A DNA stretch of 64,000 nucleotides from Candidatus Uhrbacteria bacterium CG_4_9_14_3_um_filter_41_35. Lineage in GTDB: Bacteria > Patescibacteriota > Patescibacteriia > UBA9934. This document shows, one piece after another, positions 22,214-59,620 of this stretch. The notes below the pieces were generated by a model. The model ran no database searches. It was given only the letters and a program-made list of their open reading frames with translations, and was not told the DNA's origin. The stretch covers positions 8,797 through 72,796 of the forward strand of contig PFWT01000009.1 of the NCBI GenBank assembly GCA_002791275.1, written 5' to 3'. Numbering within the stretch: the first letter of the stretch is position 1; every line of letters begins with the position of its first letter. A program made the translations under genes and the position numbers.

Positions 22214-22407
22214 ATAATTGGTTATATCTATAATACAACGATTTTCAATAAATAATTCAATTTTTCCACATGATACAGATATTTTGGTCGAGGTACGCCC
22301 CACGTGTGATAATTTTGATATTGACAATTAATAAAATATCCTTTAGTCTAACCGTCTTATTCACATATTCCTGTGTTTTAAGACAACTGCTTGAATGCGG
22401 AGGAAAA

Positions 22408-28373: not shown

Positions 28374-29747
<1,374 letters not shown>

Positions 29748-43713: not shown

Positions 43714-45114
43714 ATGAAAAGTCTGACTAAAAAAAATAAAATAAGAATTACAAAAAGATTTATTAAAGCATATTTAATAATATCTTTGGTTTTAGTTTTT
43801 AGTTTTTCAACGGCTGTCTACTTTATTTTTTCAAATATTATTTTGCAAGATGTTCGAACAACAGCTAAAAATACAGCTAAAGTTATTGCAGAAGAAGTAA
43901 ATTTTATAGGGCACGAAAATTTGCAGAATTTGAACAACGAAACTGATCCGAACTATATTCGAATATTCAACGAATTAAACACGGCGCAACGCTTGAACCA
44001 TGATATTGAATATATTTACACAATGAGACCACGAATAAATGGTAAGTGGGAGTTCGTTGTTGATGCGACAATTGAGGTTGATTCAAACAAAAATGGTGTC
44101 ATTGATCCTGAAGAAGCAAAGGCTAATATTGGAGATATTTACGATATTTCCTGCTGTGAAGAGATTCCGAAAGGTTTAATAGAACCAACTGCGGATAAAA
44201 AAGTAACCATTGATGATTGGGGAAGCTGGATTTCAGGTTATGCGCCAATTACAAACAATAAAGGCCAAGTGATTGGTATTGTTGGCGTGGATATTTCAGC
44301 AGATACAATGTTTAGTAATTTACAGGCTCTACGCGTAATGATGCTAATAGTCATTGCAATTACTTTGTTTATTGCTGGTTTGTTTGGTTTTGTTGTTTAC
44401 TATTTACTTAAAAAAGAATCAGAAATAATTCAAGACGGTTTGCAAACAAAAAACTACGAACTTGAGGAAAAAATTAACGAAAGAAGTAAAGAATTGGCAG
44501 AATACAACACCTCTTTATCAAAACAGCTTATTCAGTGCGCTACCATAATAGACGATAACCGTGACGCTATAAAAGTTGGGGGTATTCAGGACCCAAATCA
44601 GGTTGATTTAATTTTGATTAATATCTTCAAGGACACTGAGCTTTTCAAAACTGTTGGTGAAATTAGAAGTAGAAAATTAACTATCGACAGGCAGTTAACG
44701 GATTTTGATTTAATGATGAAGTTTGTTTTCCTTTCTTTTAAGGAAAAACTTGCGGAAAAAAATATTAAGCTGGTTACTAACATTGCAAACTGGGTCGGAG
44801 TATTTAATTTTGACAAGAGGAAAATTGAAAATATAGTTTCAATGATGCTCGAGGAAGCAATTTTAAGAGAAGGTACGACCGAAATTACAGTTAATGCAGA
44901 GGTGGATACGGATTCTGAAACAGTCAAACTTGAGGTTATAGATAACGGCAATATGATCGTTATAGGTGCACTAGACGACAAGGAAGTTATAAAAAATAAA
45001 ATGAACGACATTATTAAGCAGGGGATTGTTGAATTGCACGGGGGTGAATTTGGTCAGGAGATGTTAGGAAAGAACAAAAATGTGGAGTGGTTACGTTTAC
45101 CGCAAGACTTTTAG
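43714..45114 (+). CDS. Membrane sensor protein: Cache-like extracytoplasmic domain between two TM helices, coiled coil, HATPase_c-like C-terminus without clear H-box
   Basis: TM1 at residues about 18-40. Cache-like motifs (YIYTMRPRINGKWEFVVD, WISGYAPITNNKGQVIGIVGVDIS). TM2. C-terminal N-box/G-box-like VIDNGNMIV, GGEFGQ. Confidence 0.45.
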   Translation: MKSLTKKNKIRITKRFIKAYLIISLVLVFSFSTAVYFIFSNIILQDVRTTAKNTAKVIAEEVNFIGHENLQNLNNETDPNYIRIFNELNTAQRLNHDIEYIYTMRPRINGKWEFVVDATIEVDSNKNGVIDPEEAKANIGDIYDISCCEEIPKGLIEPTADKKVTIDDWGSWISGYAPITNNKGQVIGIVGVDISADTMFSNLQALRVMMLIVIAITLFIAGLFGFVVYYLLKKESEIIQDGLQTKNYELEEKINERSKELAEYNTSLSKQLIQCATIIDDNRDAIKVGGIQDPNQVDLILINIFKDTELFKTVGEIRSRKLTIDRQLTDFDLMMKFVFLSFKEKLAEKNIKLVTNIANWVGVFNFDKRKIENIVSMMLEEAILREGTTEITVNAEVDTDSETVKLEVIDNGNMIVIGALDDKEVIKNKMNDIIKQGIVELHGGEFGQEMLGKNKNVEWLRLPQDF

Positions 45115-45147: not shown

Positions 45148-45600
45148 ATGTTAATTAAGTTGTTAAAAAATCCTCGAGTTCAGCATCACGGGAATAGATT
45201 TGCTAAATTTGTTACGGTTGGCCTTGTATCAGCTTGTTTTGATTTGGGCATTCTAACTTTTTTAGTTGAGGTTTTTTCTTTTAATCTCTATTTTGCAAAC
45301 AGTATTTCTTTTTTTGTTGCGGTTAATGTTAGTTACAACTTGAATAAAAACTGGACTTTTAACAGTGTAAGTACATCAAAGCCTCGGCAAATCTATAAAT
45401 TTTTCACGATTGCGATTATTGGTTTTATGTTTAACCAAACCTCACTGTTTATTCTGACAAATTTGGGTATTTGGTACGTTTTTGCTAAGATAATGATGGT
45501 TAGCATGGTAGCTATTTGGAACTATTCAGCAAATTATTTATGGACTTTTAGCACTCGAGAAAAATATGAAAAAACTATCCATAATAATTCCAGTTTTTAA
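45148..45600 (+). CDS. GtrA-family membrane protein
   Basis: Four TM helices and the GtrA-like N-terminal KFVTVGLVSACFDLGILTFLVE. Confidence 0.65.
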   Translation: MLIKLLKNPRVQHHGNRFAKFVTVGLVSACFDLGILTFLVEVFSFNLYFANSISFFVAVNVSYNLNKNWTFNSVSTSKPRQIYKFFTIAIIGFMFNQTSLFILTNLGIWYVFAKIMMVSMVAIWNYSANYLWTFSTREKYEKTIHNNSSF

Positions 45601-46243
45601 CGAGGAATCGACGATTTTGGGCATTCTTAATAAGATTGAGGATGTGGATTTGGGTATTAAAAAAGAGATCATTTTTGTAGACGATGCCTCAACCGATGGT
45701 AGTGCTGAAATATTAAAATCAATTAGTTCAAAGTACAAAGTGATTTTCAAAATACATAATACCGGCAAGGGTTCTGCTATTCGCTCTGGCTTAGAGGCTG
45801 TGACTGGTGATTATGTGATAATTCAAGATGCTGACCTTGAATATGATCCGAATGATTATAAAAAATTACTAAATGTAGTAAATGCTGACCACGAGGTGGT
45901 TTACGGTTCGCGAAATCTAGAAAAAAACCTTCGAATAAATAATAAATATTATTGGGGTGGTCGGTTGATTACTTTTTTCACTAACTTACTTTACGGCAGT
46001 AGCTTAACGGACGTAAATACCTGTTATAAACTGTTTTCAACAGATTTACTTCGCTCGCTCGAGCTCGAACAGGATCGGTTTTCATTTTGTGAAGAATCAA
46101 CAGCTAAAGTATTAAAGAAAAACAAAACAATTATTGAAGTTCCGATCCAATATTATCCTCGGCACTTTTCTGAAGGAAAAAAAATTAGAGCAAAGGATGG
46201 ACTTATAGCAATATATACACTACTCAAATATCGGATTTTATGA
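45566..46243 (+). CDS. GT2 polyprenol-phosphate glycosyltransferase (Dpm1/GtrB-like)
   Basis: LSIIIPVFNEES, FVDDASTDGS and the DAD-containing IIQDADLEYDP. Confidence 0.8.
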   Translation: MKKLSIIIPVFNEESTILGILNKIEDVDLGIKKEIIFVDDASTDGSAEILKSISSKYKVIFKIHNTGKGSAIRSGLEAVTGDYVIIQDADLEYDPNDYKKLLNVVNADHEVVYGSRNLEKNLRINNKYYWGGRLITFFTNLLYGSSLTDVNTCYKLFSTDLLRSLELEQDRFSFCEESTAKVLKKNKTIIEVPIQYYPRHFSEGKKIRAKDGLIAIYTLLKYRIL

Positions 46244-47787
46244 TTACTTTTGAAAAAATTATCAATCAGTTCAGCAGTAAAATAACACGAAAACTTCAAA
46301 AAAAATTGTTCACCGGTTTGGTATTAGCTAGTGTCGTTGTACTGCACATCTTCCTCATTACGCAAAATATTTCAGATCTATTTTTAAGATACAATGAAGA
46401 TAACAACGCACTTTACTCAATCGCAGCGCAGAATTTGGTCAGCGACGGCGCCCTCCACTTAAAGTTTGGTTTAGTAACCGGAAAAATTATCGAAGGAGCG
46501 GAACTGCAGTACTATACACATCACCCAAGTTTTTTTGTTTTACCAACCGCGCTAGTGTACGCAATTTTTGGTGTAAGTGAACTCACAACTCGTTTAGCAC
46601 CGATTATTTTTTCTGTGATGTCGGTTGTCCTAATGTTTTTACTGGTACTTGAAACTCGAAAAAAACTTTTGCTCGCTTTTTTTGCTGGTTTTGTAATGGC
46701 TACGGCTCCAGCCCTGGCGTTTTATGGCAAGATGCTTGACCCTGAAATATTCGTAATCTTTTTTTCGCTCCTTTCAATCTATTTATTCTACTTAAGAAAA
46801 CGGATTGAAAATCAATATCTCAGCTACGCGTTACTCGGCGTAATTTTACTTGGCACGACCATGGGTTGGCATTTTTATTTCACTGGATTTGTGATTTGGC
46901 TAGCTATTATCAGTGAAAAACAATACCCCAACCGCAAATTGTTCACGTTTGGACTACCGCTTCTAGTGCTTGTTACGGTTACTTTACAGGTTGGCCAGTT
47001 TTGGTTGTTAGGTGGAGAGAGTGGCGTTGCGGGATTTTTAGATGCTGGTGCTCTTAGAACCGAAGGGGTTGCCTGGTCAGTATGGTCCCGTAAAATGCTC
47101 ACGATTGGTCAATATGAGTATTCGGCTGTTGCAATCTTTGTTGCGTCTGCTTGGGCGATATTTTCAGCCTCACTATCAATTAAGCGCCGAGAATTTAGCA
47201 TATCTGCAATACTCCTCTTAATACCTCTACTTATAATGGTGATCTTTAGAGAATGGATGATGCACTTTTACTCACTAATGTACTTCGCGCCCTTTATCGC
47301 ACTAGCTTTAGCGGAGGTACTGAATATTTCATACGAAGTGTTAAAGAAGATCTCGGGTTCTAAACTAATTGCAGGACTAGTCGTGTTCTATCTTCTGCTT
47401 GGTCAGTATTTTTTCACGACTCAAGCCTTGGCTTTCTTTAAAACAGCTTTTTCAGTAGACGAAAGTACTGTGGAAACTCTCAAGTCTCTAAAATCTGCAA
47501 AAACTCAGGATATAATTTGCTACGGAGAGAGTAGCTCTGGGCAAGTAGTTGATGCGATTTATGGATTTTATTTAGATGCGAGAATGTACAATTTTAAGAA
47601 TTGTGTAAATGAAAATAAAGCAAATTTAGCAGTGATAGGAAATCCGCAAATTAGTAATTTTGAAAACAGGGTCTATGAAGAATACCAGAAAATAGGTTAT
47701 ACTATGTTAGGGTGCGGAGGAAAAATATGTGTGCTTGGCTTAACTCCGCTTGAGACACTTCAAAATAATCAAGAAAATGAACAATAA
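46240..47787 (+). CDS. GT-C family membrane glycosyltransferase (ArnT/PMT-like)
   Basis: More than 10 TM helices. N-terminal loop motif YSIAAQNLVSDG...ELTTRLAPIIFSV typical of ArnT/PMT_2. Translationally coupled to the upstream GT2. Confidence 0.6.
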   Translation: MITFEKIINQFSSKITRKLQKKLFTGLVLASVVVLHIFLITQNISDLFLRYNEDNNALYSIAAQNLVSDGALHLKFGLVTGKIIEGAELQYYTHHPSFFVLPTALVYAIFGVSELTTRLAPIIFSVMSVVLMFLLVLETRKKLLLAFFAGFVMATAPALAFYGKMLDPEIFVIFFSLLSIYLFYLRKRIENQYLSYALLGVILLGTTMGWHFYFTGFVIWLAIISEKQYPNRKLFTFGLPLLVLVTVTLQVGQFWLLGGESGVAGFLDAGALRTEGVAWSVWSRKMLTIGQYEYSAVAIFVASAWAIFSASLSIKRREFSISAILLLIPLLIMVIFREWMMHFYSLMYFAPFIALALAEVLNISYEVLKKISGSKLIAGLVVFYLLLGQYFFTTQALAFFKTAFSVDESTVETLKSLKSAKTQDIICYGESSSGQVVDAIYGFYLDARMYNFKNCVNENKANLAVIGNPQISNFENRVYEEYQKIGYTMLGCGGKICVLGLTPLETLQNNQENEQ

Positions 47788-48628
47788 AATTGCAATAATC
47801 GGTGAGGGAGGCGGTATGCGTAACGCAATTACGGCGGGTTTTATTGTTGGAACAGGTTTAAATCCGTCAGATGTTGACGCTTATTATGGCACGTCATCAG
47901 CAATTGGAAATGGCCTTTACTTTGCAACCGGTCAATCGGATCACGCGCTTGAAATGTGGGTTCATAAACTTACCACAACCGAGGTTATGGACTACAAAAA
48001 CGCTTTTCGGGGCAGATATATGGCGGATATTGATCATATGGTCGATAACGTCTGCTCCTCGCTCGATGTTGAAAAATTACAACATTCAAAAATGAAAATT
48101 GTGGCTAGTGTTGTAAAAAAACAAAGTGGCGAAATTGAATATTTAGAATTGAGTGATCATAATTTTAGAAATGTTTTCAAAGCAACCTGTTCGATTCCGT
48201 ACATCTCACGACCGATTATAATTGATGAAAACGAATATGTAGACGGCGGCATTGGTGATAATTTCGTGATCTTGAAGGCATACGAAGATGGTTATCGGAA
48301 TTTCATAGTCCTTAATAATCAGCCAAAAATTGTTGGTTATACAGCGGAATTTGCTAAAGCAGTGGTGGATAAAATGTCTGAAAAAGGGATGCGAAACGCT
48401 ATGAAACTCCTTATAAAAAATTACGAAACCGCCTGGGAGTTTACGCAGAACCCACCAGAGGGCGTTAATATTTATCAGTTTGTGCCAACGCACAGTCAAA
48501 CGATTTCAAAGTTTGAGCGTGATCCGGATAAGGTAAAAAGTATTTATCTGCAAGGAGTTGGTCTTGGTAAACTAGCGGAAAAAGAGGTAGCTGAATTTAT
48601 TCAACAAGCAAAAATGTCTCAGAATTAA
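47777..48628 (+). CDS. Patatin-like phospholipase
   Basis: GGGMRNAITAG (GxGxxG), nucleophile elbow GTSSA and catalytic-Asp motif VDGGIGDN. Confidence 0.7.
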   Translation: MNNKIAIIGEGGGMRNAITAGFIVGTGLNPSDVDAYYGTSSAIGNGLYFATGQSDHALEMWVHKLTTTEVMDYKNAFRGRYMADIDHMVDNVCSSLDVEKLQHSKMKIVASVVKKQSGEIEYLELSDHNFRNVFKATCSIPYISRPIIIDENEYVDGGIGDNFVILKAYEDGYRNFIVLNNQPKIVGYTAEFAKAVVDKMSEKGMRNAMKLLIKNYETAWEFTQNPPEGVNIYQFVPTHSQTISKFERDPDKVKSIYLQGVGLGKLAEKEVAEFIQQAKMSQN

Positions 48629-48864
48629 TTCTGAGACATTTTCACAACTTCTTCGAGTCTACGGTCTAAATCATCGCTTCCGCCGATGAAAACATCGCCA
48701 ACAAATATTTGTGGCACAGTCATATGGCCACTTCTAGCTTTAAGTTCATCAAATTCTTCTGAAGACGTTAGTACGTGCTCTTCATACTTTAGACCAGCGT
48801 TTTCAAGGGTCATTTTTGCTTTTGTGCAGTACGGACAGTGACTTTTTGTGTAAATTTTGATCAT
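48625..48864 (-). CDS. Glutaredoxin
   Basis: CPYC active site, 79 aa, the TVPQIF motif and the GG/DD motif. Confidence 0.75.
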   Translation of the reverse strand: MIKIYTKSHCPYCTKAKMTLENAGLKYEEHVLTSSEEFDELKARSGHMTVPQIFVGDVFIGGSDDLDRRLEEVVKMSQN

Positions 48865-49631
48865 ATTTTGAATGATTTAAGATTATTAGTGGCGATAAAA
48901 CCCGGGTTCAGCAGATCCTCTTTATTATAACTCAGAGGTTTATTTTCAAGGTCATTAATGTACCCACCAGCTGCTTCTAGCACTGCGTGCGCAGCCGCCG
49001 TATCCCATTCCATACAAGATGGCCTGAGTCTAGGATAGATATCGGCTGTACCTTCAGCAATGGCGAGAATCTTGAGCGAACTCCCAATATTTTTAATATC
49101 TGGGTTTCTAAACTGTTCAATAAATCGGGCAGTTGCGTCGTCCAAATGATTTTTTGAAGCCACGACTCTGAGGGGCTCCGCGGTTTCTGAAACGTGAATC
49201 TGTTTTTGCACACCAGCCTCTTTGATAAATGCTCCTCCACCGACCGAGCCCCAATATAATTTTTGGGTGGCTGGCACGTAAACTACACCAAGCACAGGTG
49301 TATCATTTTCAATGAGGGCGATGTTAACTGTAAAGTCAGGTTCGCGGCGAACAAAAGATTTGGTGCCGTCAAGCGGATCAACGAGCCAATATTTTGTGAA
49401 AGATTGGCGGCCACTAAACGGTATTTGTATATTTTCTTCGGAAAGAACAGGTAGTCCGGTTGATTCTAAAACGGAATTGATAATATCGTTTGCGGTTTTG
49501 TCAGCCTTGGTGACTGGTGAATCGTCAGCCTTGTATTCGGTAGCGAAGTCCTCGGATACAAAAACATCCATAATGGCCAGTCCAGCTTTAATAGCTACCT
49601 CTTTGGCAATACTTAGTAATTCAGAATTCAT
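48861..49631 (-). CDS. cysQ: 3'(2'),5'-bisphosphate nucleotidase (CysQ, inositol monophosphatase family)
   Basis: WLVDPLDGT metal-binding motif. Lies directly downstream of cysNDC. Confidence 0.75.
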   Translation of the reverse strand: MNSELLSIAKEVAIKAGLAIMDVFVSEDFATEYKADDSPVTKADKTANDIINSVLESTGLPVLSEENIQIPFSGRQSFTKYWLVDPLDGTKSFVRREPDFTVNIALIENDTPVLGVVYVPATQKLYWGSVGGGAFIKEAGVQKQIHVSETAEPLRVVASKNHLDDATARFIEQFRNPDIKNIGSSLKILAIAEGTADIYPRLRPSCMEWDTAAAHAVLEAAGGYINDLENKPLSYNKEDLLNPGFIATNNLKSFKI

Positions 49632-49632
49632 A

Positions 49633-50883
49633 TTAAATTATCATACCAGACGCCACGGTTTCGTTAGTGGCTTCGTCGATCAGAATTATACTGCCTGTTT
49701 GTCTGTTGCGCCTGTAACTATCGCAAAAAATCGGTTGAGCGGTGCGTAGTTTGACGCGAGCGATATCGTTCATTTGAATATTTTTATCCAATTTTTTACG
49801 TGAAAGCGTGTTCACGTCTACCTTGTAAATAACCTCTTTAATAATCGCCTTTACCTCGTTTGTGGTGTGGCGGAGGTAATATTTCGCTCGGTCTTTTGGC
49901 GGGGTGCCAGAGAGCCAGCATAACATTAAATCAACATCCTGCGTAACCGTAGGTTGATTGTTAACGCGCGCTAGCATATTGCCCCGGCTAATATCCACGT
50001 CATCAGCTAAAGTAATCGTGACTGAATCGCCAGCTTCGGCGCTCTCCAATTTTTCAGTATAACTCTCGATTGTTTCGATTGTGGTTGAAAGACCAGAAGG
50101 CAAAACAATAATTTCTTCGCCTGGTTTCAAAATACCACCAGCTACTTTACCCGTATAACCGCGGTAATCATGAAACTCATCCGTGTGCGGCCTGATAACG
50201 CTCTGAACAGGGAAGCGGGCGTCGATTTTGTTAAGGTCAGAACCAATGTGAATAGTTTCAAGCAGATAAAGGAGAGTTGACCCCTCGTACCAAGGCATAG
50301 CGCTCGAACGATCTACAACGTTATCGCCGTGCAGAGCAGAAACTGGAATAAATTGTACGTCAGTCACTTCGAGTTTATGCGAAAAAGCTTTAAACTCATC
50401 GACAATATTTTGAAAAACAGATTCGCTGTAATCCACTAAATCCATTTTGTTTACACAGATAATAATGTGCGGGATCTGCAATAGACTGGCAATAAAAGCG
50501 TGGCGCTTGGTTTGCTCAACAATCCCGTGACGCGCATCCACCAGAATAAGCGCCAAGTTAGCGGTTGAAGCCCCGGTGACCATATTGCGTGTGTATTCAA
50601 TATGGCCTGGAGTATCGGCGATGATAAATTTGCGCTTTTTAGTTTTGAAATAACGGTAAGCAACGTCAATAGTAATACCTTGCTCACGTTCACTTTTTAA
50701 GCCGTCAGTGAGAAGTGCGAGCTCAACACGATCAAGACCACGCTGTTTGCTCGAGAACTCAATCGCGTCGAGCTGATCCTGATAAATTGATTTTGTATCA
50801 TAAAGCAGGCGACCAATCAGGGTACTCTTGCCATCGTCTACACTACCTGCGGTGGTGAATCTTAAGAGATCAATATTTTTCAT
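49633..50883 (-). CDS. cysN: Sulfate adenylyltransferase subunit 1 (CysN GTPase)
   Basis: G1 motif GSVDDGKSTLIGRLL, the DTPGH motif (IIADTPGHIEY) and the NKMD motif (ICVNKMDL). Start set at MKNIDLL; the longer ORF overlaps cysD. Confidence 0.85.
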   Translation of the reverse strand: MKNIDLLRFTTAGSVDDGKSTLIGRLLYDTKSIYQDQLDAIEFSSKQRGLDRVELALLTDGLKSEREQGITIDVAYRYFKTKKRKFIIADTPGHIEYTRNMVTGASTANLALILVDARHGIVEQTKRHAFIASLLQIPHIIICVNKMDLVDYSESVFQNIVDEFKAFSHKLEVTDVQFIPVSALHGDNVVDRSSAMPWYEGSTLLYLLETIHIGSDLNKIDARFPVQSVIRPHTDEFHDYRGYTGKVAGGILKPGEEIIVLPSGLSTTIETIESYTEKLESAEAGDSVTITLADDVDISRGNMLARVNNQPTVTQDVDLMLCWLSGTPPKDRAKYYLRHTTNEVKAIIKEVIYKVDVNTLSRKKLDKNIQMNDIARVKLRTAQPIFCDSYRRNRQTGSIILIDEATNETVASGMII

Positions 50884-50884
50884 A

Positions 50885-51832
50885 CTAAAAATAACCAGAT
50901 TTTTTCCTATCTTCCATTGCAGTTTCGGTGCGTTTGTCGTCTGATCGTGTGCCACGTTCTGAGGTTAGACTGCCGGCGATTTCAAGGATCACCTCGTCCA
51001 CTGTGGTTGCACTTGAAATCATAGCTCCGGTGCAGGTAATGTCGCCAATGGTTCGAAAACGGACGGTCATTATTTTTGACTGTTCGTTGTCTTTCATCTG
51101 AATTAAACCGGCGTCGGCGAGTAATTGACCGTCGCGCTCAAAAACTTTTCGCTCATGACTGAAATATAATCCTGGCAAGTTAATATTTTCAGCTTTAATA
51201 TAATTCCAAACGTCTTCCTCAGTCCAATTACTGATCGGAAACGCCCGAAAATGTTCGCCAGGTTGTTTGTGACCGTTTAATAAATTCCAAAGTTCCGGCC
51301 GTTGATTTTTCGGGTTCCACTCACCGAACTCGTTCCGATGTGAAAAAATCCGTTCTTTGGCCCGCGCCTTTTCCTCGTCGCGCCGAGCCCCACCAATTGC
51401 GCAGTCGAATTGGTTTTTTTCTAAAACATCGAGCAAGGTTGTGGTCTGTAACTTATTCCGACTGGCGTAAAAGCCTAATTCCTCTTGTACACGTCCATTT
51501 TTTATCGACTCTTCAACCGAACCGATGATTAGTGTAGTACCGAGCTCGGCATTTAGTGCATCGCGAAAAGCTATCGTTTCTGGAAAATTATGACCAGTAT
51601 CGATGTGGAGTAGGGGGAAGGGGATCTTACCTGGATAAAAAGCTTTTTTAGCCAAGTGCACCAAGGTGATTGAGTCTTTACCGCCTGAAAATAACAAAAC
51701 TGGCCGCTCAAATTGAGCAACTATTTCTCGAAATATATAAATAGAGTCTGACTCTAATTCTTTGAGGTAGGTATCCACATTTTCAGTTACAAAATCCTCG
51801 GCAGAATATAGCCAAGAATTATTTCTAAACAT
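50885..51832 (-). CDS. cysD: Sulfate adenylyltransferase subunit 2 (CysD)
   Basis: PAPS-reductase-fold PP-loop LLFSGGKDS and the CysD-like region YLKELESDSIYIFREIV. Confidence 0.85.
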   Translation of the reverse strand: MFRNNSWLYSAEDFVTENVDTYLKELESDSIYIFREIVAQFERPVLLFSGGKDSITLVHLAKKAFYPGKIPFPLLHIDTGHNFPETIAFRDALNAELGTTLIIGSVEESIKNGRVQEELGFYASRNKLQTTTLLDVLEKNQFDCAIGGARRDEEKARAKERIFSHRNEFGEWNPKNQRPELWNLLNGHKQPGEHFRAFPISNWTEEDVWNYIKAENINLPGLYFSHERKVFERDGQLLADAGLIQMKDNEQSKIMTVRFRTIGDITCTGAMISSATTVDEVILEIAGSLTSERGTRSDDKRTETAMEDRKKSGYF

Positions 51833-52311
51833 TCCTCCTCTGACTGCTCACTCGTGTTTACGATTATATCAGGATTTTGCGGTTTTTCGTAGGGTGATGT
51901 GATTCCGGTAAAATTCTCAATCTCACCATTTCGAGATCTTTTGTAGAGACCTTTGATATCGCGCGCCTCGCAAACTTCGAGCGGGCAATCAACATGAACT
52001 TCTATAAAACGATCCGCTCCCACGGTTGCTCTGATGTTTTGCCTAGCTTGTTCAAACGGAGCGATGAATGAGGCGATCACGGTTTGACCCGAATCCGCTA
52101 AAATCTTGGCAACCGCACCCGCCCGACGTAAATTCTCAGTTCTGTCAATTTCAGAAAAATTTAAATCGCTACACAGATGTTCACGTAGAACATCGCCATC
52201 TAGTTGGTAGGCACTAACTGATCGCTCGCGTAACTCAGTGTGAAGTGCTTTAGCTAAAGTAGATTTTCCAGAGCCAGAAAGTCCGGTTAATAAAATAACG
52301 ACACTGTTCAT
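51787..52311 (-). CDS. cysC: Adenylyl-sulfate kinase (APS kinase)
   Basis: P-loop LTGLSGSGKSTLA, and 174 aa typical of CysC. Confidence 0.85.
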   Translation of the reverse strand: MNSVVILLTGLSGSGKSTLAKALHTELRERSVSAYQLDGDVLREHLCSDLNFSEIDRTENLRRAGAVAKILADSGQTVIASFIAPFEQARQNIRATVGADRFIEVHVDCPLEVCEARDIKGLYKRSRNGEIENFTGITSPYEKPQNPDIIVNTSEQSEEECLEIILGYILPRIL

Positions 52312-52312
52312 A

Positions 52313-53239
52313 TTAAACTTTCCAGTGAGTAAGATCTCGATTTAACAGTTGTTCAATAAATTCGGTGTCTTCAAGAAATTTTGGCAATATTTCCTTTCGT
52401 AAATCTTGACTAAGCGGTTCGTATTTCACTACTACTGGATGCAACCTGAAAACATCAAAAATCAATTTTTTAGCTTTGAATATAGGTCGTTTTAAAGAAA
52501 GGGGTAAGTTATAAAAAATATGATTATTTGAAAAAAGAGCGCTAATTCTTGTGATTATTTTCGATCTTGGAATTGTATGCGGATTAAAATTTATATCTCC
52601 TTTTTTTACTGTAAAATTTGGATCAATATCTAAAAACTCAAAAACACGCTTCAACTCTCGTTCCTGATTAGTCTTAAAATCATCAAACAAAATAAATATA
52701 AATTGCTCTCGATTAAAAAGTTCAAATAACTCTAAAATTCGCGCTTTATAGTGACTGCTTTTTGCAAAATAGTTAAATCGTGGATGATTTTTTTTATATA
52801 AATCCTCAAAACTATTAATAGTTTTGTGTGCAATATTAACCTTAACCTCTTGTTGATAATGGGAATAAAGTCGATCTACAGGATCTCGAAGCATTACAAT
52901 GAAACGAGCATCACTAAAATACTCCTTTAATAATTTGTGTGATGACTTTTCAAAAAAATATGAAACCGAGGCATCACCGATCGCTTTCTCGGTTGCAACC
53001 TCACGATAACACGTTTCATACCATTTCCAGCCTCGGTAAAACGAACCACAATAATGATTTTTATCCGTAATTTTTTTAAATCCATTTAAAGCCAGATAAG
53101 ATTCCGCCTCACAAGCTAATAGAAAGTTCAGTTCTTTATCTTTTGGAATAAAGGCCTCCGGGTGTTGCATAAGGATTTGCGCTAGTGCGGTTGTCCCTGC
53201 TTTAGCAGCACCGAGAATGAAAAAATTAGGTTTGACCAT
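52313..53239 (-). CDS. PAPS-dependent sulfotransferase
   Basis: 5'-PSB motif FFILGAAKAGTTAL and 3'-PB motif VMLRDPVDRLYSHY. First gene of the minus-strand operon, immediately upstream of cysC. Confidence 0.75.
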   Translation of the reverse strand: MVKPNFFILGAAKAGTTALAQILMQHPEAFIPKDKELNFLLACEAESYLALNGFKKITDKNHYCGSFYRGWKWYETCYREVATEKAIGDASVSYFFEKSSHKLLKEYFSDARFIVMLRDPVDRLYSHYQQEVKVNIAHKTINSFEDLYKKNHPRFNYFAKSSHYKARILELFELFNREQFIFILFDDFKTNQERELKRVFEFLDIDPNFTVKKGDINFNPHTIPRSKIITRISALFSNNHIFYNLPLSLKRPIFKAKKLIFDVFRLHPVVVKYEPLSQDLRKEILPKFLEDTEFIEQLLNRDLTHWKV

Positions 53240-53351
53240 ATTTAACGATTACGCTCCTATACTATCATTACCGTGCAAATATATGAAATATTAGTTTTGT
53301 TCTACAAATAGTTGTATGCTAAAATGACTTTAAAATTATTAATCTTGAAAT

Positions 53352-54281
53352 ATGCAAGAACTTGTTGAAAAAAGGGCTGAATTAAGAAAGGCGTTTGATC
53401 GTGTAATGCCAGATATTCAAGAATTTAACAATGTTTACGTCGGGGCTGGAGTAATGAAATTACTCAAAAAGATTTTGAAGTACAAAATGAAGTACGTGCG
53501 TTATTTACTGGCGCGGTTTGGGATTTACCGAAGCGATGTAAAAGTTGAGTTATTCTGGGGGCCAACAATTAAACTACCGATCCACGACGCTGAAGTAATG
53601 CCAGTGTTTATTTTAAAAGCTTTACCTTCGAGTGAATATAAATTAACGCGATATTTAATCAATTCACTACAACCAAATGACGTTTTTTACGACGTTGGAG
53701 CCAATTATGGTTTGTATAGTGGTTTAGCTGGTGAAATCATTAGTAGTGGTGAAATCCACGCGTTTGAACCTAATCCGGAGATCTTTAAATATTTAATTGG
53801 TGGTCTTGGCTCAAAATATAAGAAAATCAGTTGTGTAAAAAAAGCCTTATCAAATCAGGTTGATAAACTCACTTTTTACGTTAAACGAAACTCAAGCGGT
53901 GGAAGTACTTTAAACGGTGAGGTGGCCTCTACGCTGAAGAGTAATTTTGATGCGATCAATGTACCATGTATCACACTCGATTCATACATCAAAAATCACC
54001 GTTTGCCAACCTTTATGAAGTTAGACGTTGAAGGGGCTGAGCATTTCGTGATTGAAGGCGCAACTGAGTTATTTAAACGAACAAAACCAGTAATTTCACT
54101 TGAAGTTTGGGGGGCTGAAACTGGTGACCGTTTTTCAAGAAAAGCCTCTGAAATGCTCATCAAACTTGGCTACGCACCACATAGAATTAACGATAATGGG
54201 GAACTGAATGAAATTGAAAGTATTGATTCAATGAATTTAGCTAGTAACGAGGTTGAAAATGTTATTTTCAAAGCAAAATAA
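53352..54281 (+). CDS. FkbM-family SAM-dependent methyltransferase
   Basis: Methyltransf_21 motif FYDVGANYGLYS and downstream conserved acidic residues. Confidence 0.7.
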   Translation: MQELVEKRAELRKAFDRVMPDIQEFNNVYVGAGVMKLLKKILKYKMKYVRYLLARFGIYRSDVKVELFWGPTIKLPIHDAEVMPVFILKALPSSEYKLTRYLINSLQPNDVFYDVGANYGLYSGLAGEIISSGEIHAFEPNPEIFKYLIGGLGSKYKKISCVKKALSNQVDKLTFYVKRNSSGGSTLNGEVASTLKSNFDAINVPCITLDSYIKNHRLPTFMKLDVEGAEHFVIEGATELFKRTKPVISLEVWGAETGDRFSRKASEMLIKLGYAPHRINDNGELNEIESIDSMNLASNEVENVIFKAK

Positions 54282-55413
54282 GTCTAACTCCAAACAAACC
54301 TCCTTTATGAAAGTTGCTGTAAATTTATTACCGTATTCTAGTTATCAAGGGATCGAAACCTACACTCGAAATCTCATCAACGAGATGATCAAAATCGATG
54401 GTGTTGAACTTATCCTAATCAAACATCAGGAAACACCGGACTTTTTTGATTTTGGAGATAAGGTGACAGAAGTTATTGTCCCTTTTAAAAAAGTTTTAAA
54501 AGCTGGTGTTGCAATTTATTTGCAAACAGGAATTTATTTTCTACTGCTGAAGTTAAAACCAGATGTTTTGCTTTCCACATCGCCAGCCTCGCCGTATTTC
54601 TACTCGAAGAATGTGATTACTTTTCACGACTGTGCCTACGATAGATTTAGGGAGTTTGCAAATATTTTTTCAAAATATTATTTCAAATCAATGTATATTG
54701 CGGCGAAATATTTTGCCAGAAAAATTATTACAATTTCGGAATTTTCAAAACGTGAGCTAATCGATGTTTACAAAATCAAGCCGTCAAAAATCGCGGTAGT
54801 TCTCGAAGGCCCACCAGCCCTGCCTAAGGTTACAATAACGGCAGTTGATGAGGTAAAACAAGATTTCAATATTCACGGAAAATATTTCTTTTATGTTGGA
54901 AATTCCCGGCCACGTAAAAATCTGAAGAGATTAATAGAAGCTTTTGGGGCCTTTCAGAAAGAAAATAGTAGTTACAAACTTATAATTGCTGGCAAGATCG
55001 ATAATCGCTTCGAAGATATTGACGGAATAATTGCAAAATTTCAGCTGGCGGACTCTGTGGTGCGGACAGGTTTTGTGACGGACGAACAAAAAGTGGCCCT
55101 GCTAAAAGGAGCAGTAGCGCTTGTGTTTCCAAGCTTGTACGAAGGTTTTGGCTTACCAGTGCTTGAAGCGCAAACCTTGGGAGTCCCGGTCATCACCTCG
55201 CACACCTCTTCACTACCCGAAGTTGGTGGAAACTCGGTTTATTACGTGGATCCTTACAGTGAAAAAAGTATTACGGAGGCATTAAGTGTTTTGGTAGCCG
55301 ATAAAGAGCTTTGTAGCAGACTGGTTGAAAAAGGGTTTGAAAATATAAAAAGTTTTTCTTGGAAACAGACAGCTTTTCAGACTTTAGCTGTTCTTGAAAA
55401 ATCAGAAAAATAA
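54253..55413 (+). CDS. GT4 (GT1-superfamily) glycosyltransferase
   Basis: C-terminal EX7E region EGFGLPVLEAQTLGVPVITS. Confidence 0.8.
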   Translation: MKMLFSKQNKSNSKQTSFMKVAVNLLPYSSYQGIETYTRNLINEMIKIDGVELILIKHQETPDFFDFGDKVTEVIVPFKKVLKAGVAIYLQTGIYFLLLKLKPDVLLSTSPASPYFYSKNVITFHDCAYDRFREFANIFSKYYFKSMYIAAKYFARKIITISEFSKRELIDVYKIKPSKIAVVLEGPPALPKVTITAVDEVKQDFNIHGKYFFYVGNSRPRKNLKRLIEAFGAFQKENSSYKLIIAGKIDNRFEDIDGIIAKFQLADSVVRTGFVTDEQKVALLKGAVALVFPSLYEGFGLPVLEAQTLGVPVITSHTSSLPEVGGNSVYYVDPYSEKSITEALSVLVADKELCSRLVEKGFENIKSFSWKQTAFQTLAVLEKSEK

Positions 55414-55479
55414 CTTGGTCTCAACATTCTAGTGCAATTTAGTGATAGGATCACTGAGTATGCAAAATAGTCAATATAA

Positions 55480-55799
55480 ACGGCTTTCAATAGAGGATCG
55501 GGAAGAAAATGAGTCAGCACAAGTAATTTGTTATCTCAACTGGTATGACGGCATATTTTGCACACCCTGCTAGCCCTTGGGAGCGGGGAACGAAAGACTT
55601 TAACCTACGACCAAGGAAAAGAAACGAAAATACTAACGGACTTATCCGTCAGTATTTTCCAAAAGGTACAGAATTCGATAAGGTGTCTACACGGGAACTC
55701 AAACGCGTCTAGTGCGAACTAAACGACCGTCCAAGAGCAGTTCTTGAATATTACAAACCAGATGAAGTATTTAATAATTTAGTTGCACTAAAAGTTTGA
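55480..55799 (+). pseudogene. Degraded C-terminal remnant of an IS30-family transposase
   Basis: Frame reading [13 protein letters not shown]...[21 protein letters not shown]...(TAG)...ELNDRPRAVLEYYKPDEVF matches the IS30 transposase C-terminus. It is interrupted by an in-frame stop and an upstream frameshift. No intact N-terminal or DDE region. Confidence 0.6.
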
Positions 55800-56135
55800 G
55801 ACCAAGTTAAATACCTTGGTCTTCCACCAGGCTGGAGATTTTATATAGACAATGAAGGTCATGAAGATGTTTGGTATGACCCCAAGTTGCTGCAAATTCA
55901 TGACTAAATGATTTGAGCAAAACTCAGGGGCTAAGCCTCGCCTAACACGCGATATCCAAAATTTGTTTCGTTTCATTTAAACAAACTTCGGATATCGCGG
56001 ATACGTTGTACGACATATTTTTCAATATTTTTTCTCAAATAGAAATTTTGTTGAAGAATTTAAAAAGGAATGGAATTTTTATTTTTTTATTATAATGAGG
56101 GGGATAAGAGGTTGATTTAGAAAATATCATCGATT

Positions 56136-57218
56136 ATGAAATCTCTACAAATTGTAAAACTGTATGCTCCGGTAATAGGTGGGGTGGAGAAAATTGCTCA
56201 GGATGTTGCTGAAGGACTGGGCTCAGATGTTTTGTGTTGTCGGAAGACAGGTCGGCGTGCAGTTGAGGGAATAAATGGTGTGAAAGTTATCCGTACAGCG
56301 AGTTTTGGGATGTATTTTGCTATGCCAGTTTCTTTTGATTTTCTACGAGTTTGGCGGAAGATTAAAAATAACTATGCTGTTATTGATTTGCACGCACCTT
56401 TTCCGCTAGCTGATTTAGCTTTATTTATTTTTCAGCCAAAAGGTAAATTGATTGTGCACTATCATTCAGACATCGTGCGTCAAAAATTGCTCAGTTTGTT
56501 ACTTAAGCCAATTTTGCTCTCAACCTTACGCCGAGCCGATAAAATCCTTGTTTCCAGCCCAAATTTGAAAAGCAGTTCGTTTGTTTTACAAAAATTTCAG
56601 AACAAAGTTGAGGTTGTACCTTTTGGATTAGATATAAACCAGTACGATAAATTTAACGCTGATTTTGTAACCGAACTGAAAAATAAATATGGAAAATTTG
56701 CGCTGTACATTGGTCGCTTTGGTTACTACAAGGGGCTAGATTATTTAGTAAGGGCAATGCAGAGGGTTGATTATAAATTAATAATGATTGGTGACGGTAA
56801 AGAACGGTTCAAGATTGAAAAACTGATTGTGAATTTGGGACTTACCGAGAAAATAATTTTGTTACCGTTTCAAACAGCTGAAAAATTACGCGACTATTTC
56901 CACGCCTCTTCGGTATTTGTACTACCGTCAATCTATCGAAGTGAGGCTTTTGGTATAGTTTTAATGGAAGCATTAGCTTGTGGAACTCCGCTAGTTTCGA
57001 CGGAGCTCGAAACAGGCACCTCTTTTGTTAATGAGCATAAAAAAACCGGCCTTGTTGTAAAAAAAGCAGATGCATTTGAATTAGGTGAGGCGATAAATAC
57101 CATATTATCAGACGATTTTCTGCAAGCTGAATACTCAAAACATGCACTAGAACGAGCAAAAAAAGTTTTTGACATAGAAATAATGCTTGATAAAATCCGA
57201 GAAAGTTATAAGATATAA
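56136..57218 (+). CDS. GT4 (GT1-superfamily) glycosyltransferase
   Basis: EAFGIVLMEALACGTPLVST. Confidence 0.8.
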   Translation: MKSLQIVKLYAPVIGGVEKIAQDVAEGLGSDVLCCRKTGRRAVEGINGVKVIRTASFGMYFAMPVSFDFLRVWRKIKNNYAVIDLHAPFPLADLALFIFQPKGKLIVHYHSDIVRQKLLSLLLKPILLSTLRRADKILVSSPNLKSSSFVLQKFQNKVEVVPFGLDINQYDKFNADFVTELKNKYGKFALYIGRFGYYKGLDYLVRAMQRVDYKLIMIGDGKERFKIEKLIVNLGLTEKIILLPFQTAEKLRDYFHASSVFVLPSIYRSEAFGIVLMEALACGTPLVSTELETGTSFVNEHKKTGLVVKKADAFELGEAINTILSDDFLQAEYSKHALERAKKVFDIEIMLDKIRESYKI

Positions 57219-57220
57219 AT

Positions 57221-58495
57221 ATGAAATTTAAAGCCTTGTTACTGCTGCTTGGGGACATTGGGGTTCTTTACGGTTCGCTGGCTTCAACGCTCTATTTAAG
57301 GCACCGCTTGGTGCCTTTTGACGATTATTGGGCGCACCACGTGGTTCCGTTTTCAATCATATTTGTAATTTGGCTAGCAGTATTTTACTTTCACGATCTG
57401 TACTCAGTTGAGGCTTTTCGAATAAATACCAAATTCTTTACAGTGCTCGTGCAGGCGACCATTTTTAATGGACTGATTGCTATTTCTTTTTTCTATTTAA
57501 CTGGCGCTTTCAGCATTACGCCAAAAACTAATTTGGTAATATTCTCAGCTTTCTTTTTCTTGTTGTTTATTGCCTTCAGAGCACTTTCAGCCGACGTTAT
57601 CCGCGGTAAAGAACACTGTAAACGTCTGGCATTTTTAGGTTTATCAGACTTTGAGGAGAATCTTGTTCGGGAGGCGATTTCAGAATCAGTGCTACCAATG
57701 ATCGAAGTTCCATTTAATGATTATTATTTTGACGCCTTGATAGCTGGACAAAAGGCTTACACCGCGGATCAAAAAGATTTGTATGAATCAGTGGTTCGCG
57801 GGCGGGAAGTAACGGATTTAGTTTCATTCCTCGAGGCTATTACAAACAAGATCCCGATTACTTTGGCTAGCACTGACTGGTTTATTAATAAATTTGCTTT
57901 AGTTCAGGATCGTGAATATGTTCTTGTGAAACGGATATTTGATGTGTTTTTGAGTGTCGGTTTTTTGATTTTTTTCGCGCTTCCGATGCTCATAATTAGC
58001 ACAATAATAAAGTTGAGCAGTCATGGACCAGTTCTTTATAAGCAGACTCGTACTGGTAAGAACGGTATTTCGTACGTATTGTACAAATTCAGATCAATGA
58101 CCATAGACGCCGAAATAAATGGCGCGCAGTGGAGTCAGAAAAATGACAATCGAGTAACTAAAATCGGAAAAATATTACGCCACACGCATCTTGATGAGCT
58201 TCCACAACTTTGGAATATTTTAGTAGGTGAGATGTCGTTCGTTGGGCCAAGACCCGAGCGTCCTGAAATGATCAGCTTGTTAAACACCGAAATCCCGTTT
58301 TATTCACTGAGACACCTAGTAAAACCCGGTGTGACAGGTTGGGCGCAAATTAACTATCCTTATGGCGCTAGCGTTGAAGACGCAAAGAACAAATTGGCGT
58401 ATGATTTATACTATGTGAAGCACCGAGCATTTTTTTGGGATATTCGGATTATTGTTAAAACCCTAGCAACTATGGTAAGAGGAGAGGGTCGTTAG
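57221..58495 (+). CDS. Polyprenyl-phosphate sugar phosphotransferase (WbaP/CpsE-like initiating transferase)
   Basis: Bacterial sugar transferase domain (KRIFDVFLSVGFLIFFALPM, GPVLYKQTRTGKNG, LYKFRSM, DELPQLWNILVGEMSFVGPRPERP). Confidence 0.8.
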   Translation: MKFKALLLLLGDIGVLYGSLASTLYLRHRLVPFDDYWAHHVVPFSIIFVIWLAVFYFHDLYSVEAFRINTKFFTVLVQATIFNGLIAISFFYLTGAFSITPKTNLVIFSAFFFLLFIAFRALSADVIRGKEHCKRLAFLGLSDFEENLVREAISESVLPMIEVPFNDYYFDALIAGQKAYTADQKDLYESVVRGREVTDLVSFLEAITNKIPITLASTDWFINKFALVQDREYVLVKRIFDVFLSVGFLIFFALPMLIISTIIKLSSHGPVLYKQTRTGKNGISYVLYKFRSMTIDAEINGAQWSQKNDNRVTKIGKILRHTHLDELPQLWNILVGEMSFVGPRPERPEMISLLNTEIPFYSLRHLVKPGVTGWAQINYPYGASVEDAKNKLAYDLYYVKHRAFFWDIRIIVKTLATMVRGEGR

Positions 58496-58528
58496 GTAAA
58501 AGATATTAATTCGTTTGAATAATTTTAT

Positions 58529-59620
58529 ATGTATAAACTATTTGTTAAAATCAGAAATTGGAAAATAAGAACCGCATATCGGTATATTTTAAAACCGATT
58601 CTGTTTAAAATGGATCCTGAGTTTGTGCACGATCGGTTTATGATCGCCGGTCGGCTAATTGGCGGAAACGCAGTAACTCGAGCTTTAAACAGTTTAATGT
58701 TCAACTACCAAAGTAAAATGCTAGAACAAGAGATCTTGGGAATAAATTTCAGGAATCCAATCGGTCTATCGGCTGGTTTTGATAAAAATGCGATTCTAAC
58801 AGACGTAATGCCAACAGTTGGTTTTGGTTTTGAAGAAGTTGGATCGATCACGGGTTTAGAGTGTGCTGGAAACCCAAAGCCGAGGCTATGGCGTCATATA
58901 GACAAGCAAAGTTTGCGAGTTTACTATGGTTTAAAAAATGACGGAGCTGAGGTCATTGCTAAACGACTTAAAAACAAAAAATTTAAATTTCCAATTGGTA
59001 TTAGTATCGCAAAAACAAATTGCGCCGAAACCGTGGATACGGCCGCGGCAATTGCAGATTACAAAAAAGCTATGTTAGCTTTCGATGACATTGGTGATTA
59101 CCTTACGATTAATATTAGTTGTCCAAACACTTTTGGCGGTCAACCGTTCACAGATCCAGTGCGATTTGAAGCACTGTTAAAAGGTCTTCTGACTTCAATT
59201 GACCACAAACCGGTTTTTATCAAACTTTCACCGGATCTTAGTAAGAATGAACTTCTGAAGTTGTTAGATATTGCCGAGCGCTACACGGTTGACGGTGTTA
59301 TTTGTAGCAATTTAACAAAAGAACATTCAGAAGGGCAGGGTGGACTTTCAGGTAAAGTTGTCGCTGAAAAATCTCTAAAAATAATTAAAATAATCCGTAA
59401 ATACTACGGAGATCGGTTCGTAATTGTGGCCGTGGGTGGTATCTTTAACGCAGACGACGCCTACCGCGCCATTAAAGCTGGAGCGTCACTCATCCAACTG
59501 ATCACTGGTATGATCTTTGGTGGACCGCAAACAATTAGTGAGATTAACGTTGGTTTAGTGGAAAGATTGAAAGCAGACGGTTATTTAAACATTTCAGAGG
59601 CAGTGGGTAAAAGTAGATAA
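58529..59620 (+). CDS. pyrD: Class 2 (quinone-dependent) dihydroorotate dehydrogenase-like flavoprotein
   Basis: Membrane-association N-terminal extension. GLSAGFDKN, GFGFEEVGSIT, PRLWRH, the catalytic region, GISIAKTN and the C-terminal FMN-phosphate binding motif GG. Confidence 0.7.
   Translation: MYKLFVKIRNWKIRTAYRYILKPILFKMDPEFVHDRFMIAGRLIGGNAVTRALNSLMFNYQSKMLEQEILGINFRNPIGLSAGFDKNAILTDVMPTVGFGFEEVGSITGLECAGNPKPRLWRHIDKQSLRVYYGLKNDGAEVIAKRLKNKKFKFPIGISIAKTNCAETVDTAAAIADYKKAMLAFDDIGDYLTINISCPNTFGGQPFTDPVRFEALLKGLLTSIDHKPVFIKLSPDLSKNELLKLLDIAERYTVDGVICSNLTKEHSEGQGGLSGKVVAEKSLKIIKIIRKYYGDRFVIVAVGGIFNADDAYRAIKAGASLIQLITGMIFGGPQTISEINVGLVERLKADGYLNISEAVGKSR

Follow-up and report, generated by a model that had tools for sequence, protein, structure and literature searches.

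What would a bacterium of the Candidate Phyla Radiation (CPR) do with its own set of genes for sulfate activation? Members of this group are ultra-small, most of them are thought to live as episymbionts (PMC7906910, PMC9698310), and the occurrence of cysC, cysN, and sat in dozens of CPR and DPANN genomes has been read as sulfate reduction (He et al. 2021, PMC7906910). We address the question for a 64,000-nucleotide (nt) stretch of DNA from Candidatus Uhrbacteria bacterium CG_4_9_14_3_um_filter_41_35 (325-kb contig PFWT01000009.1 of assembly GCA_002791275.1; hereafter, the window), in which a block at positions 45148 to 59620 carries a predicted sulfotransferase (ST) in one operon with genes for making its sulfate donor, 3′-phosphoadenosine 5′-phosphosulfate (PAPS), and glycosyltransferase genes on both sides. 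On the basis of this gene content, we think it rather probable that the block is a CPR surface-glycan biosynthesis locus carrying its own sulfation module. An original prediction, made from the letters of the DNA and a list of its open reading frames (ORFs), had proposed such a system in a reduced genome, and the latter guess was borne out by the host, a Candidatus Uhrbacteria member of the CPR; DUF5671 and further small-genome features of the window are consistent with this placement. The genes of the block, which are listed below, were identified from the ORF map and from profile searches with Pfam and NCBIfam, scored against curated cut-offs (where two bit scores are given, the second is the cut-off; for Pfam, the gathering threshold [GA]).

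45148-45600, plus strand: membrane protein of the GtrA/DPMS-TM family, 150 amino acids (aa) (PF04138, E = 9e-21, 74.7 bits vs GA 26.1)
45566-46243, plus strand: family 2 glycosyltransferase (GT2), probable polyprenol-phosphate hexose synthase, 225 aa, no transmembrane (TM) segment (PF00535, E = 6e-32)
46240-47787, plus strand: GT-C fold glycosyltransferase, PMT/ArnT-like, 515 aa, about 10 TM segments (PF02366, 23.3 bits vs 22.7)
47750/47777-48628, plus strand: patatin-like phospholipase with DUF6363, 283 aa (PF01734, E = 2e-14; PF19890, E = 8e-11)
48625-48864, minus strand: dithiol glutaredoxin, 79 aa, with CPYC, TVP, and GGSDD (PF00462, E = 6e-19)
48861-49631, minus strand: cysQ, 3′(2′),5′-bisphosphate nucleotidase, 256 aa (TIGR01331, 263.3 bits vs 228.8)
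49633-50883, minus strand: cysN, GTPase subunit of ATP sulfurylase, 416 aa (TIGR02034, 557.6 bits vs 336.1)
50885-51832, minus strand: cysD, small subunit of ATP sulfurylase, 315 aa (TIGR02039, 407.7 vs 396.6; NF003587, 433 vs 195)
51787-52311, minus strand: cysC, kinase of adenosine 5′-phosphosulfate (APS), 174 aa (PF01583, E = 2e-61; TIGR00455, 223.2 bits vs 138.7)
52313-53239, minus strand: PAPS-dependent ST, 308 aa, soluble (Sulfotransfer_3, E = 3e-19; Sulfotransfer_1, E = 4.5e-19)
53240-53351, no strand: AT-rich spacer of 112 bp separating the divergent ST and FkbM genes, presumed shared promoter region
53352-54281, plus strand: FkbM-family S-adenosylmethionine (SAM) methyltransferase, 309 aa (PF05050, E = 7e-20; TIGR01444, 95 bits vs 37.7)
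54253-55413, plus strand: family 4 glycosyltransferase (GT4) a, 384-386 aa (PF00534, E = 3e-32; PF13439)
55414-56135, plus strand: non-coding spacer, 722 bp, with a decayed C-terminal fragment of an IS30-family transposase at about 55545-55712
56136-57218, plus strand: GT4 b, 360 aa (PF00534, E = 1e-38)
57221-58495, plus strand: polyprenyl-phosphate glycosylphosphotransferase (PGT) of the WbaP/WcaJ type, 424 aa (PF02397, E = 8e-65, 218 bits; TIGR03025, 304.2 vs 295.55)
58529-59620, plus strand: pyrD, class-2 quinone-dependent dihydroorotate dehydrogenase (DHODH) (NF003652, 318.7 vs 267; TIGR01036, 284.3 vs 200)

Every gene named in the original prediction was thus recovered in its place, with a matching family and intact catalytic motifs. 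At the center of the block, six minus-strand genes are packed in the order ST-cysC-cysD-cysN-cysQ-glutaredoxin, with ST in the first position: a 1-nt gap separates ST from cysC, cysC and cysD overlap by 46 nt, the cysD/cysN and cysN/cysQ gaps are again 1 nt, and cysQ and the glutaredoxin gene overlap by 4 nt. On the left, the four plus-strand genes at 45148-48628 (GtrA, GT2, GT-C, and patatin) overlap or abut one another, and the last of them converges on the operon, overlapping the glutaredoxin stop by 4 nt. On the right, across the 112-bp spacer, the FkbM gene, the first GT4 gene, the 722-bp spacer, the second GT4 gene, the PGT gene, and pyrD are read divergently from the operon. The ST/FkbM spacer lies inside a 141- to 142-base alignment with the locus of a sister species (contig L015) at a mean column identity of 90%. 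A scan for promoters and terminators over 45-60.8 kb gave 40 promoter-like sites against 39.7 in shuffled sequences and, because such sites are no commoner than in the shuffles, is uninformative on transcription units.

The ST has no predicted TM segments and matches PF13469 (70.6 bits, GA 27) and PF00685 (69.3 bits, GA 22) far above threshold, and both motifs that the original prediction had named are present, namely, the 5′-phosphosulfate-binding (5′-PSB) loop, G10-A-A-K13-A-G15-T16-T17, and the 3′-phosphate-binding (3′-PB) motif, R118-D-P120-V-D-R123-L-Y-S126. Across 47 homologs, G10, T16, R118, and P120 are invariant; K13, G15, and T17 are each conserved in at least 96%; and S126 is retained in 41. 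D89 aligns with the catalytic Glu184 of 3-OST-3, in a column occupied by Glu in 33 of the 47 and by Asp in the other 14. Sequence searches against the Protein Data Bank (PDB) recovered an uncharacterized Alicyclobacillus enzyme as the best solved relative (PDB code 3rnl; E = 3e-29), followed by the heparan sulfate (HS) 3-O-sulfotransferases (3-OSTs; E of about 4e-6). Foldseek searches seeded with an AlphaFold (AF2) model of the protein (pLDDT 87, pTM 0.85) likewise recovered 3rnl (1e-15) and then HS 3-OST-1, -3, and -5 and NDST domains (about 1e-9), with polyketide (CurM/OLS), tyrosyl-protein (about 1e-6), and cytosolic (SULT; E ≥ 1e-4) enzymes ranking below the HS sulfotransferases; every one of the 50 top fold matches listed from the PDB is a sulfotransferase. 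By the fold class of this model, the protein is most likely a carbohydrate-type sulfotransferase. It is a divergent member of a family with 9,721 representative clusters at E ≤ 1e-10, its nearest non-orthologous representative being 35-36% identical. No NCBIfam model matched it, which would cover NodH if the library has a model for that enzyme.

The four cys genes that follow encode proteins with their active-site motifs in place: the P-loop GLSGSGKS and LDGD in CysC; an intact PP-loop (SGGKDS) in CysD; the GTPase motifs G1 (GSVDDGKST), G3 (DTPGH), and G4 (NKMD) in CysN; and the metal-site motifs DPLDGT and WDTAAA of the inositol-monophosphatase family in CysQ. CysD belongs to PF01507 (PAPS_reduct) yet is not a CysH, as the cysH models reach at most 53 bits, far under their cut-offs. 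The 416-aa CysN and 174-aa CysC are encoded by separate genes, with no NodQ-type fusion. Among the Pfam-scanned ORFs of the window there is no PAPS or APS reductase, sulfite reductase, or cysteine synthase, and no cysH, sir, or cysK was found in the next approximately 10 kb to the right of the window, so that the search reached about 45 kb to the left and 14 kb to the right of the locus. The claim in the original prediction that PAPS and sulfite reductases are missing accordingly stands for this interval, including the adjoining DNA on the right, where a neighboring reductase gene would have made the operon assimilatory, and is not established genome-wide. The window also encodes an NADP-specific glutamate dehydrogenase (28410-29747), which is noteworthy as a metabolic enzyme in a CPR genome.

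The operon ends with the glutaredoxin gene, which keeps this position in the sister species (L015) and is compatible with a sulfation-only and an assimilatory reading alike. It is not the sole glutaredoxin of the genome, since a second one, beside a peroxiredoxin, lies about 6 kb beyond the right end of the window (positions 10296-11105 of contig L100). Elsewhere in the window, a 425-aa protein (19596-20873) has a thioredoxin domain fused N-terminally to a thioredoxin-reductase-like flavoprotein, and two RimK-like ATP-grasp proteins are encoded on opposite strands (3876-4769 and 5131-6090); this pair may bear on whether the organism makes a glutathione-like thiol for its glutaredoxins.

The flanking genes would supply the putative acceptor. 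To the right of the operon, the PGT has predicted N-terminal TM segments and stands with the two GT4 enzymes and the FkbM methyltransferase. To the left, the original prediction had seen a GtrABC-like trio, which survives in part: the GtrA protein and the GT2 domain are clear, the GT2 protein lacks the C-terminal TM helices of GtrB, and the profile scores of the GT-C protein are borderline (24.7 bits vs 26.1 for PF13231 [PMT_2] and just above threshold for PF02366 [PMT]), with four homologs found. The best NCBIfam similarities of the GT2 protein, all under cut-off, are to AglJ, ArnC, PgfS, a dolichyl-P hexose transferase, and PpgS, and together with the GtrA/DPMS_TM protein it may form a split DPMS-like enzyme. 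The patatin-like lipase is only a possible member of the sulfation system; its gene holds the same position in a sister-species contig (L101). Directly upstream of GtrA, and conserved in that contig, lies a gene for a 466-aa protein with 2 TM segments (43714-45114), which has no significant Pfam match and shows weak similarities to Cache, HATPase_c, and AtoS; possibly, this is a divergent sensor kinase that controls the glycan genes. We also considered it as a PiT-type sulfate permease, because of a weak PHO4 match (E = 0.006), and ruled this out given the 2 TM segments and the equally weak Cache, HATPase, and AtoS similarities.

At the right end of the block, the gene that had been counted among the enzymes of the island as a PyrD-like flavoprotein instead encodes, by its scores, a genuine class-2 DHODH, a housekeeping enzyme judging from its sequence. 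It nevertheless adjoins glycan genes in three lineages, namely, in the window, in the sister species (L015, 3147-4244), and in a distant relative (JGI 3300072015 contig), following PGT after 33 nt in the window and GT-C after 1 nt in the distant relative. CPR bacteria are generally described as being without a respiratory chain, and a quinone-dependent DHODH seems odd for one of them.

Twenty-three contigs assembled from JGI and ENA metagenomes carry the identical ST sequence with the same neighbors, and the block is therefore not a chimeric assembly. Sister-species contigs (L015 and L101) preserve the gene order on both sides of the operon, with identities of 81% for ST, 92% for CysN, and 90% for FkbM. 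In a divergent Uhrbacteria metagenome-assembled genome (MAG; GCA_030688135.1, L104), a set of genes reading Wzy_C<-PGT<-GT4 is divergent from cysC-cysD-cysN-cysQ-ST, with identities to the window of 47% for PGT, 47.5% for GT4 (vs GT4 b), 60% for CysC, 62% for CysD, 54% for CysN, 50% for CysQ, and 36% for ST; therefore, the same partners stayed together despite rearrangement and deep divergence. In a third lineage (L102 and L103, contigs from the same ENA and JGI accession series), an FkbM gene is divergent from ST-cysC (35% identity for ST and 57-61% for CysC). The synteny comparison that the original prediction had called for thus finds the ST/cys/GT4/PGT association recurring across Uhrbacteria lineages.

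Outside the CPR, 35 loci with a length of 8 kb or more hold distant ST homologs; in 6 of these there are cys genes no farther than 10 kb away, and in 13 there are GT4 or PGT genes. One such locus (L090) reads cysN-cysD-cysC | cysQ-Wzx-ST-Wzy-?-ST-ST. A contig scan with the ST recovered 27-29% identical relatives in MAGs of cyanobacteria, Chloroflexota, and Bacteroidota, none of which has cys genes within 10 kb. In the distant relative mentioned above, PGT, GtrA, GT-C, and PyrD are contiguous, with no sulfation module, and the GT-C protein is 38% identical to that of the window; this arrangement suggests that the genes on either side of the cys operon in the window form one variable glycan locus with the sulfation module set between them. 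The core logic of the original prediction, a PAPS module wired to an ST and serving a polyprenol-linked glycan, is supported by this conservation in the divergent MAG and the third lineage, by the fold of the ST, which is nearest to carbohydrate sulfotransferases, and by homologous STs in Wzx/Wzy loci with adjacent cysQ and cysCDN.

From these components we propose the following pathway. CysD and CysN would convert ATP and sulfate to APS in a GTP-driven reaction, and CysC would phosphorylate APS to PAPS, at a cost of two ATP and one GTP per sulfate. The soluble ST would then sulfate a sugar hydroxyl of a polyprenyl-diphosphate-linked oligosaccharide, which the PGT and the two GT4 enzymes would have built on the cytoplasmic face of the membrane. 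The FkbM enzyme would O-methylate the same intermediate, and CysQ would hydrolyze PAP, the inhibitory by-product. GT2, perhaps with GtrA as its membrane part, would make a polyprenyl-phosphate sugar, and GT-C would use this on the outer face either to add a further sugar or to transfer the glycan to an acceptor. The glycan, with one PGT and two GT4 enzymes to build it, is probably short, and the methyl groups are probably carried by the same glycan; PAPS would not be drawn into assimilation.

Several points weigh against this reading. No Wzx, Wzy, ABC exporter, or ligase for the PGT-built glycan was found in the block (Polysacc_synt/MatE and Wzy_C profiles), and the Wzy_C protein of the divergent MAG has no tblastn match in the window; with no export or attachment machinery found there, the placement of the product on the cell surface is something we infer. 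The locus holds no sulfate transporter, unlike the Bacteroidota clusters; its operon is closed by a glutaredoxin; the absence of reductases holds only for the window and about 10 kb to its right, which leaves room for a second use of PAPS; the acceptor is deduced from the neighborhood and the fold class of the ST; and the comparative support comes from a handful of lineages, mostly Uhrbacteria. Lastly, in Bacteroides, where a comparable PAPS cluster adjoins a characterized enzyme, that enzyme acts on steroids instead of glycans (PMC9417993).

That enzyme leads to one of the competing explanations, namely, that PAPS does feed the ST and the acceptor is a lipid, some small metabolite, or a molecule from a host, the glycosyltransferase genes being neighbors by chance. 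In the closest characterized cluster that has cysC-cysD-cysN in this order next to an ST, the substrate is cholesterol (PMC9417993); hydroxy fatty acids are also sulfated by SULTs of gut bacteria, such as ErSULT (PMC13449962); the CysN of the window is 70-72% identical to that of Bacteroidota; the operon is abutted by a patatin-like lipase; and for 3rnl, the solved structure nearest to the ST, no substrate is known. We nonetheless regard a non-glycan acceptor as unlikely: the ST and cys genes are paired with homologous GT4 and PGT genes in the divergent MAG despite rearrangement and with FkbM in the third lineage, family members elsewhere lie inside Wzx/Wzy loci, and the fold neighbors of known substrate are glycan sulfotransferases first, the cytosolic steroid and phenol SULTs following far lower (E ≥ 1e-4).

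It is less likely still that cysDNCQ and the glutaredoxin serve ordinary assimilatory sulfate reduction, with reductases elsewhere in the genome and the ST as a minor side user. Such a use would agree with the published interpretation of CPR and DPANN cysC/cysN/sat (He et al. 2021, PMC7906910) and with the limited reach of the reductase search. Against it stand the position of ST as the first and translationally coupled gene of the operon, the lack of cysH, sir, or cysK within about 45 kb to the left and 14 kb to the right, and the fact that in three further lineages the cys genes travel with ST and glycan genes rather than with reductases. The terminal glutaredoxin would suit assimilation, as glutaredoxin is a known reductant for PAPS reductase in Escherichia coli, but CPR bacteria as a group generally lack amino acid biosynthesis. 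As for the notion that foreign DNA was misjoined to a CPR contig, as a chimera with Bacteroidota cys genes, or that the block is a decaying, non-functional acquisition, it could draw on the Bacteroidota-like CysN, on the higher GC content of cysQNDC (see below), and on the IS30 remnant inside the block. It is effectively refuted by the recurrence of the junctions on both sides in independently assembled JGI and ENA contigs (L001-L009, L099, and L100) and in the sister species; moreover, the reading frames are all intact, with catalytic motifs present and scores above curated cut-offs, and the GC content of the cys genes is within the range of other window genes.

We therefore return to the glycan-sulfation locus and to how it may have been put together. 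The 119 non-self matches listed for CysN have identities of 68-72%, and those that carry a name all come from Bacteroidota; CysD is 64-66% identical to Bacteroidota proteins, and Bacteroidota loci (L016 and L018) have the same cysC-cysD-cysN(-cysQ) order. The identities form a mosaic when the window (49633-52311) is compared with the divergent MAG (L104, 5030-8489) and with L016-L018: CysN is about 72% identical to Bacteroidota proteins versus 54% to L104, and CysC shows the opposite, about 50% versus 60%. This hints at a mosaic history of the cys module, perhaps with gene-by-gene replacement. The ST gene has a GC content of 0.326 and, at 0.249, the lowest third-position GC content (GC3) among the genes measured, and the cys genes behind it have a GC content of 0.43-0.44; the ST and the four cys genes probably have different origins. 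We tried base composition as evidence of transfer and set it aside as a weak hint at most: the cysQNDC values exceed those of the neighbors (0.31-0.40), and both they and the ST value are close to or inside the range that other genes of the window cover (e.g., RecQ, 0.433).

The original prediction had taken the IS30 remnant as a hint of horizontal assembly of the island. The remnant (about 55545-55712) matches annotated IS30 family transposases by tblastn with 56% identity over 52 aa (E = 1e-10) and is a C-terminal fragment with an internal 10-aa insertion; there is no long ORF in 55414-56135 and no intact DDE transposase. Other contigs of this population (L002 and L007) carry the 722-bp spacer, and the sister species (L015) does not, its two GT4 genes being separated by 6 nt. 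The remnant is therefore a later, lineage-specific insertion between the GT4 genes, and we rejected it as a marker of island acquisition. Horizontal origin is better shown by the 70-72% identity of CysN to Bacteroidota proteins.

Two further observations concern the window at large. A 400-aa protein with a class III adenylate/guanylate cyclase domain (7988-9190) points to cyclic-nucleotide signaling in a reduced genome, and for five ORFs of 173-485 aa (22270-23259, 30857-32314, 7358-7948, 26249-26848, and 27198-27719), Pfam gave no match at E ≤ 1e-3 or 1e-4.

To our knowledge, CPR surface chemistry is essentially uncharted, and our literature search, within the library that could be searched, found no paper connecting sulfotransferases with CPR or Patescibacteria. 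Among bacteria, sulfated glycans are rare, and the CPR cell surface is presumably the interface with the host; that so costly a sulfation module is retained in a glycan locus of variable content would argue for a surface glycan that is sulfated and negatively charged. If true, this would be the first sulfated glycoconjugate in the CPR, and the "sulfur-cycle" genes of these organisms would be read differently, in place of the published sulfate-reduction interpretation of CPR and DPANN cysC/cysN/sat (PMC7906910). More tentatively, it is possible that Uhrbacteria, and perhaps many CPR and DPANN organisms with sat, cysC, and cysN, activate sulfate for sulfated, O-methylated surface glycoconjugates by means of an ST related in fold to HS sulfotransferases, and not for assimilation or "sulfate reduction," the resulting polyanionic coat acting as a lineage-variable determinant of how cells attach to hosts or minerals. 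The small gene set (PGT, two GT4s, FkbM, ST, and cysCDNQ) could be reconstituted in E. coli.

Among known systems, one with the same logic is found in rhizobia, where an extra sulfurylase and kinase set, NodPQ, supplies Nod-factor sulfation by NodH; in strain NGR234, one and the same Nod-factor sugar is methylated by the FkbM-type methyltransferase NoeI and sulfated by the sulfotransferase NoeE. The Uhrbacteria locus resembles NodP/NodQ and NodH (mentioned in PMC8205485) in that an extra set of ATP sulfurylase and APS kinase would provide PAPS to a carbohydrate ST acting on a lipid-linked oligosaccharide. It differs in that NodQ is a CysN-CysC fusion and in its presumed acceptor, a PGT-initiated polyprenol-linked glycan in place of the secreted lipochitooligosaccharide that NodABC makes. 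In Bacteroides thetaiotaomicron, the PAPS-synthesis cluster BT_0411-BT_0416 lies next to the sulfotransferase BtSULT (PMC9417993, PMC13449962) and shares the dedicated cysC-cysD-cysN(-cysQ) set directly beside a PAPS-dependent ST. However, BtSULT sulfates steroids and sits outside a glycan cluster, and the Bacteroides cluster includes a sulfate transporter, whereas the Uhrbacteria operon has ST as its first gene and a glutaredoxin. Xanthomonas RaxST, with RaxP and RaxQ, is likewise a bacterial ST reliant on a PAPS supply of the cysD/cysN-cysC type (PMC4216712), but it sulfates a peptide tyrosine, and the Uhrbacteria locus has no peptide or type I secretion context.

With regard to the glycan machinery, the synechan (xss) cluster of Synechocystis and other cyanobacterial clusters for sulfated extracellular polysaccharides also place STs of the Sulfotransfer_1 and Sulfotransfer_3 families among glycosyltransferases and a priming transferase of a polysaccharide pathway that depends on polyprenol (PMC8205485), and we found distant homologs of the Uhrbacteria ST in cyanobacterial glycosyltransferase/PGT loci (L010 and L014). 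In contrast to the Uhrbacteria locus, which has its own cysCDNQ and no Wzx or Wzy in the window, xss has Wzx, Wzy, and a polysaccharide copolymerase (PCP) and lacks PAPS genes, because the cyanobacterial host makes PAPS and APS for assimilation. The synechan study holds sulfated polysaccharides to be exclusive to cyanobacteria (PMC8205485). At the level of the enzyme, the HS 3-O-sulfotransferases and NDST (PDB codes 1t8t, 3uan, 1vkj, and 1nst) share with the modeled ST the fold (Foldseek E of about 1e-9; TM-score of about 0.63-0.66), the 5′-PSB and 3′-PB motifs, and an acidic catalytic residue; they are only 16-22% identical in sequence and are animal Golgi enzymes acting on a polymer, and the likeness of the model indicates the enzyme class and not the acceptor.

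For the predicted chemistry, a parallel is offered by the halobacterial S-layer glycoprotein, which reportedly (Lechner, Wieland, and Sumper, 1985) receives sulfated, transiently O-methylated oligosaccharides from dolichol. There too, the oligosaccharide is sulfated and methylated while still attached to its lipid, before a surface protein receives it; that system is archaeal, with a dolichol carrier and N-linkage via an AglB-type oligosaccharyltransferase, and the parallel concerns the predicted chemistry alone. Thus, the design of a dedicated PAPS module with an ST in a glycan cluster is already known, and what is new is the CPR lineage in which it occurs. The locus also differs from these systems, judging from gene content, in its combination of parts: a self-contained cysCDNQ set joined to a PGT-initiated glycan cluster, with separate cysN and cysC genes and no recognizable flippase or polymerase.

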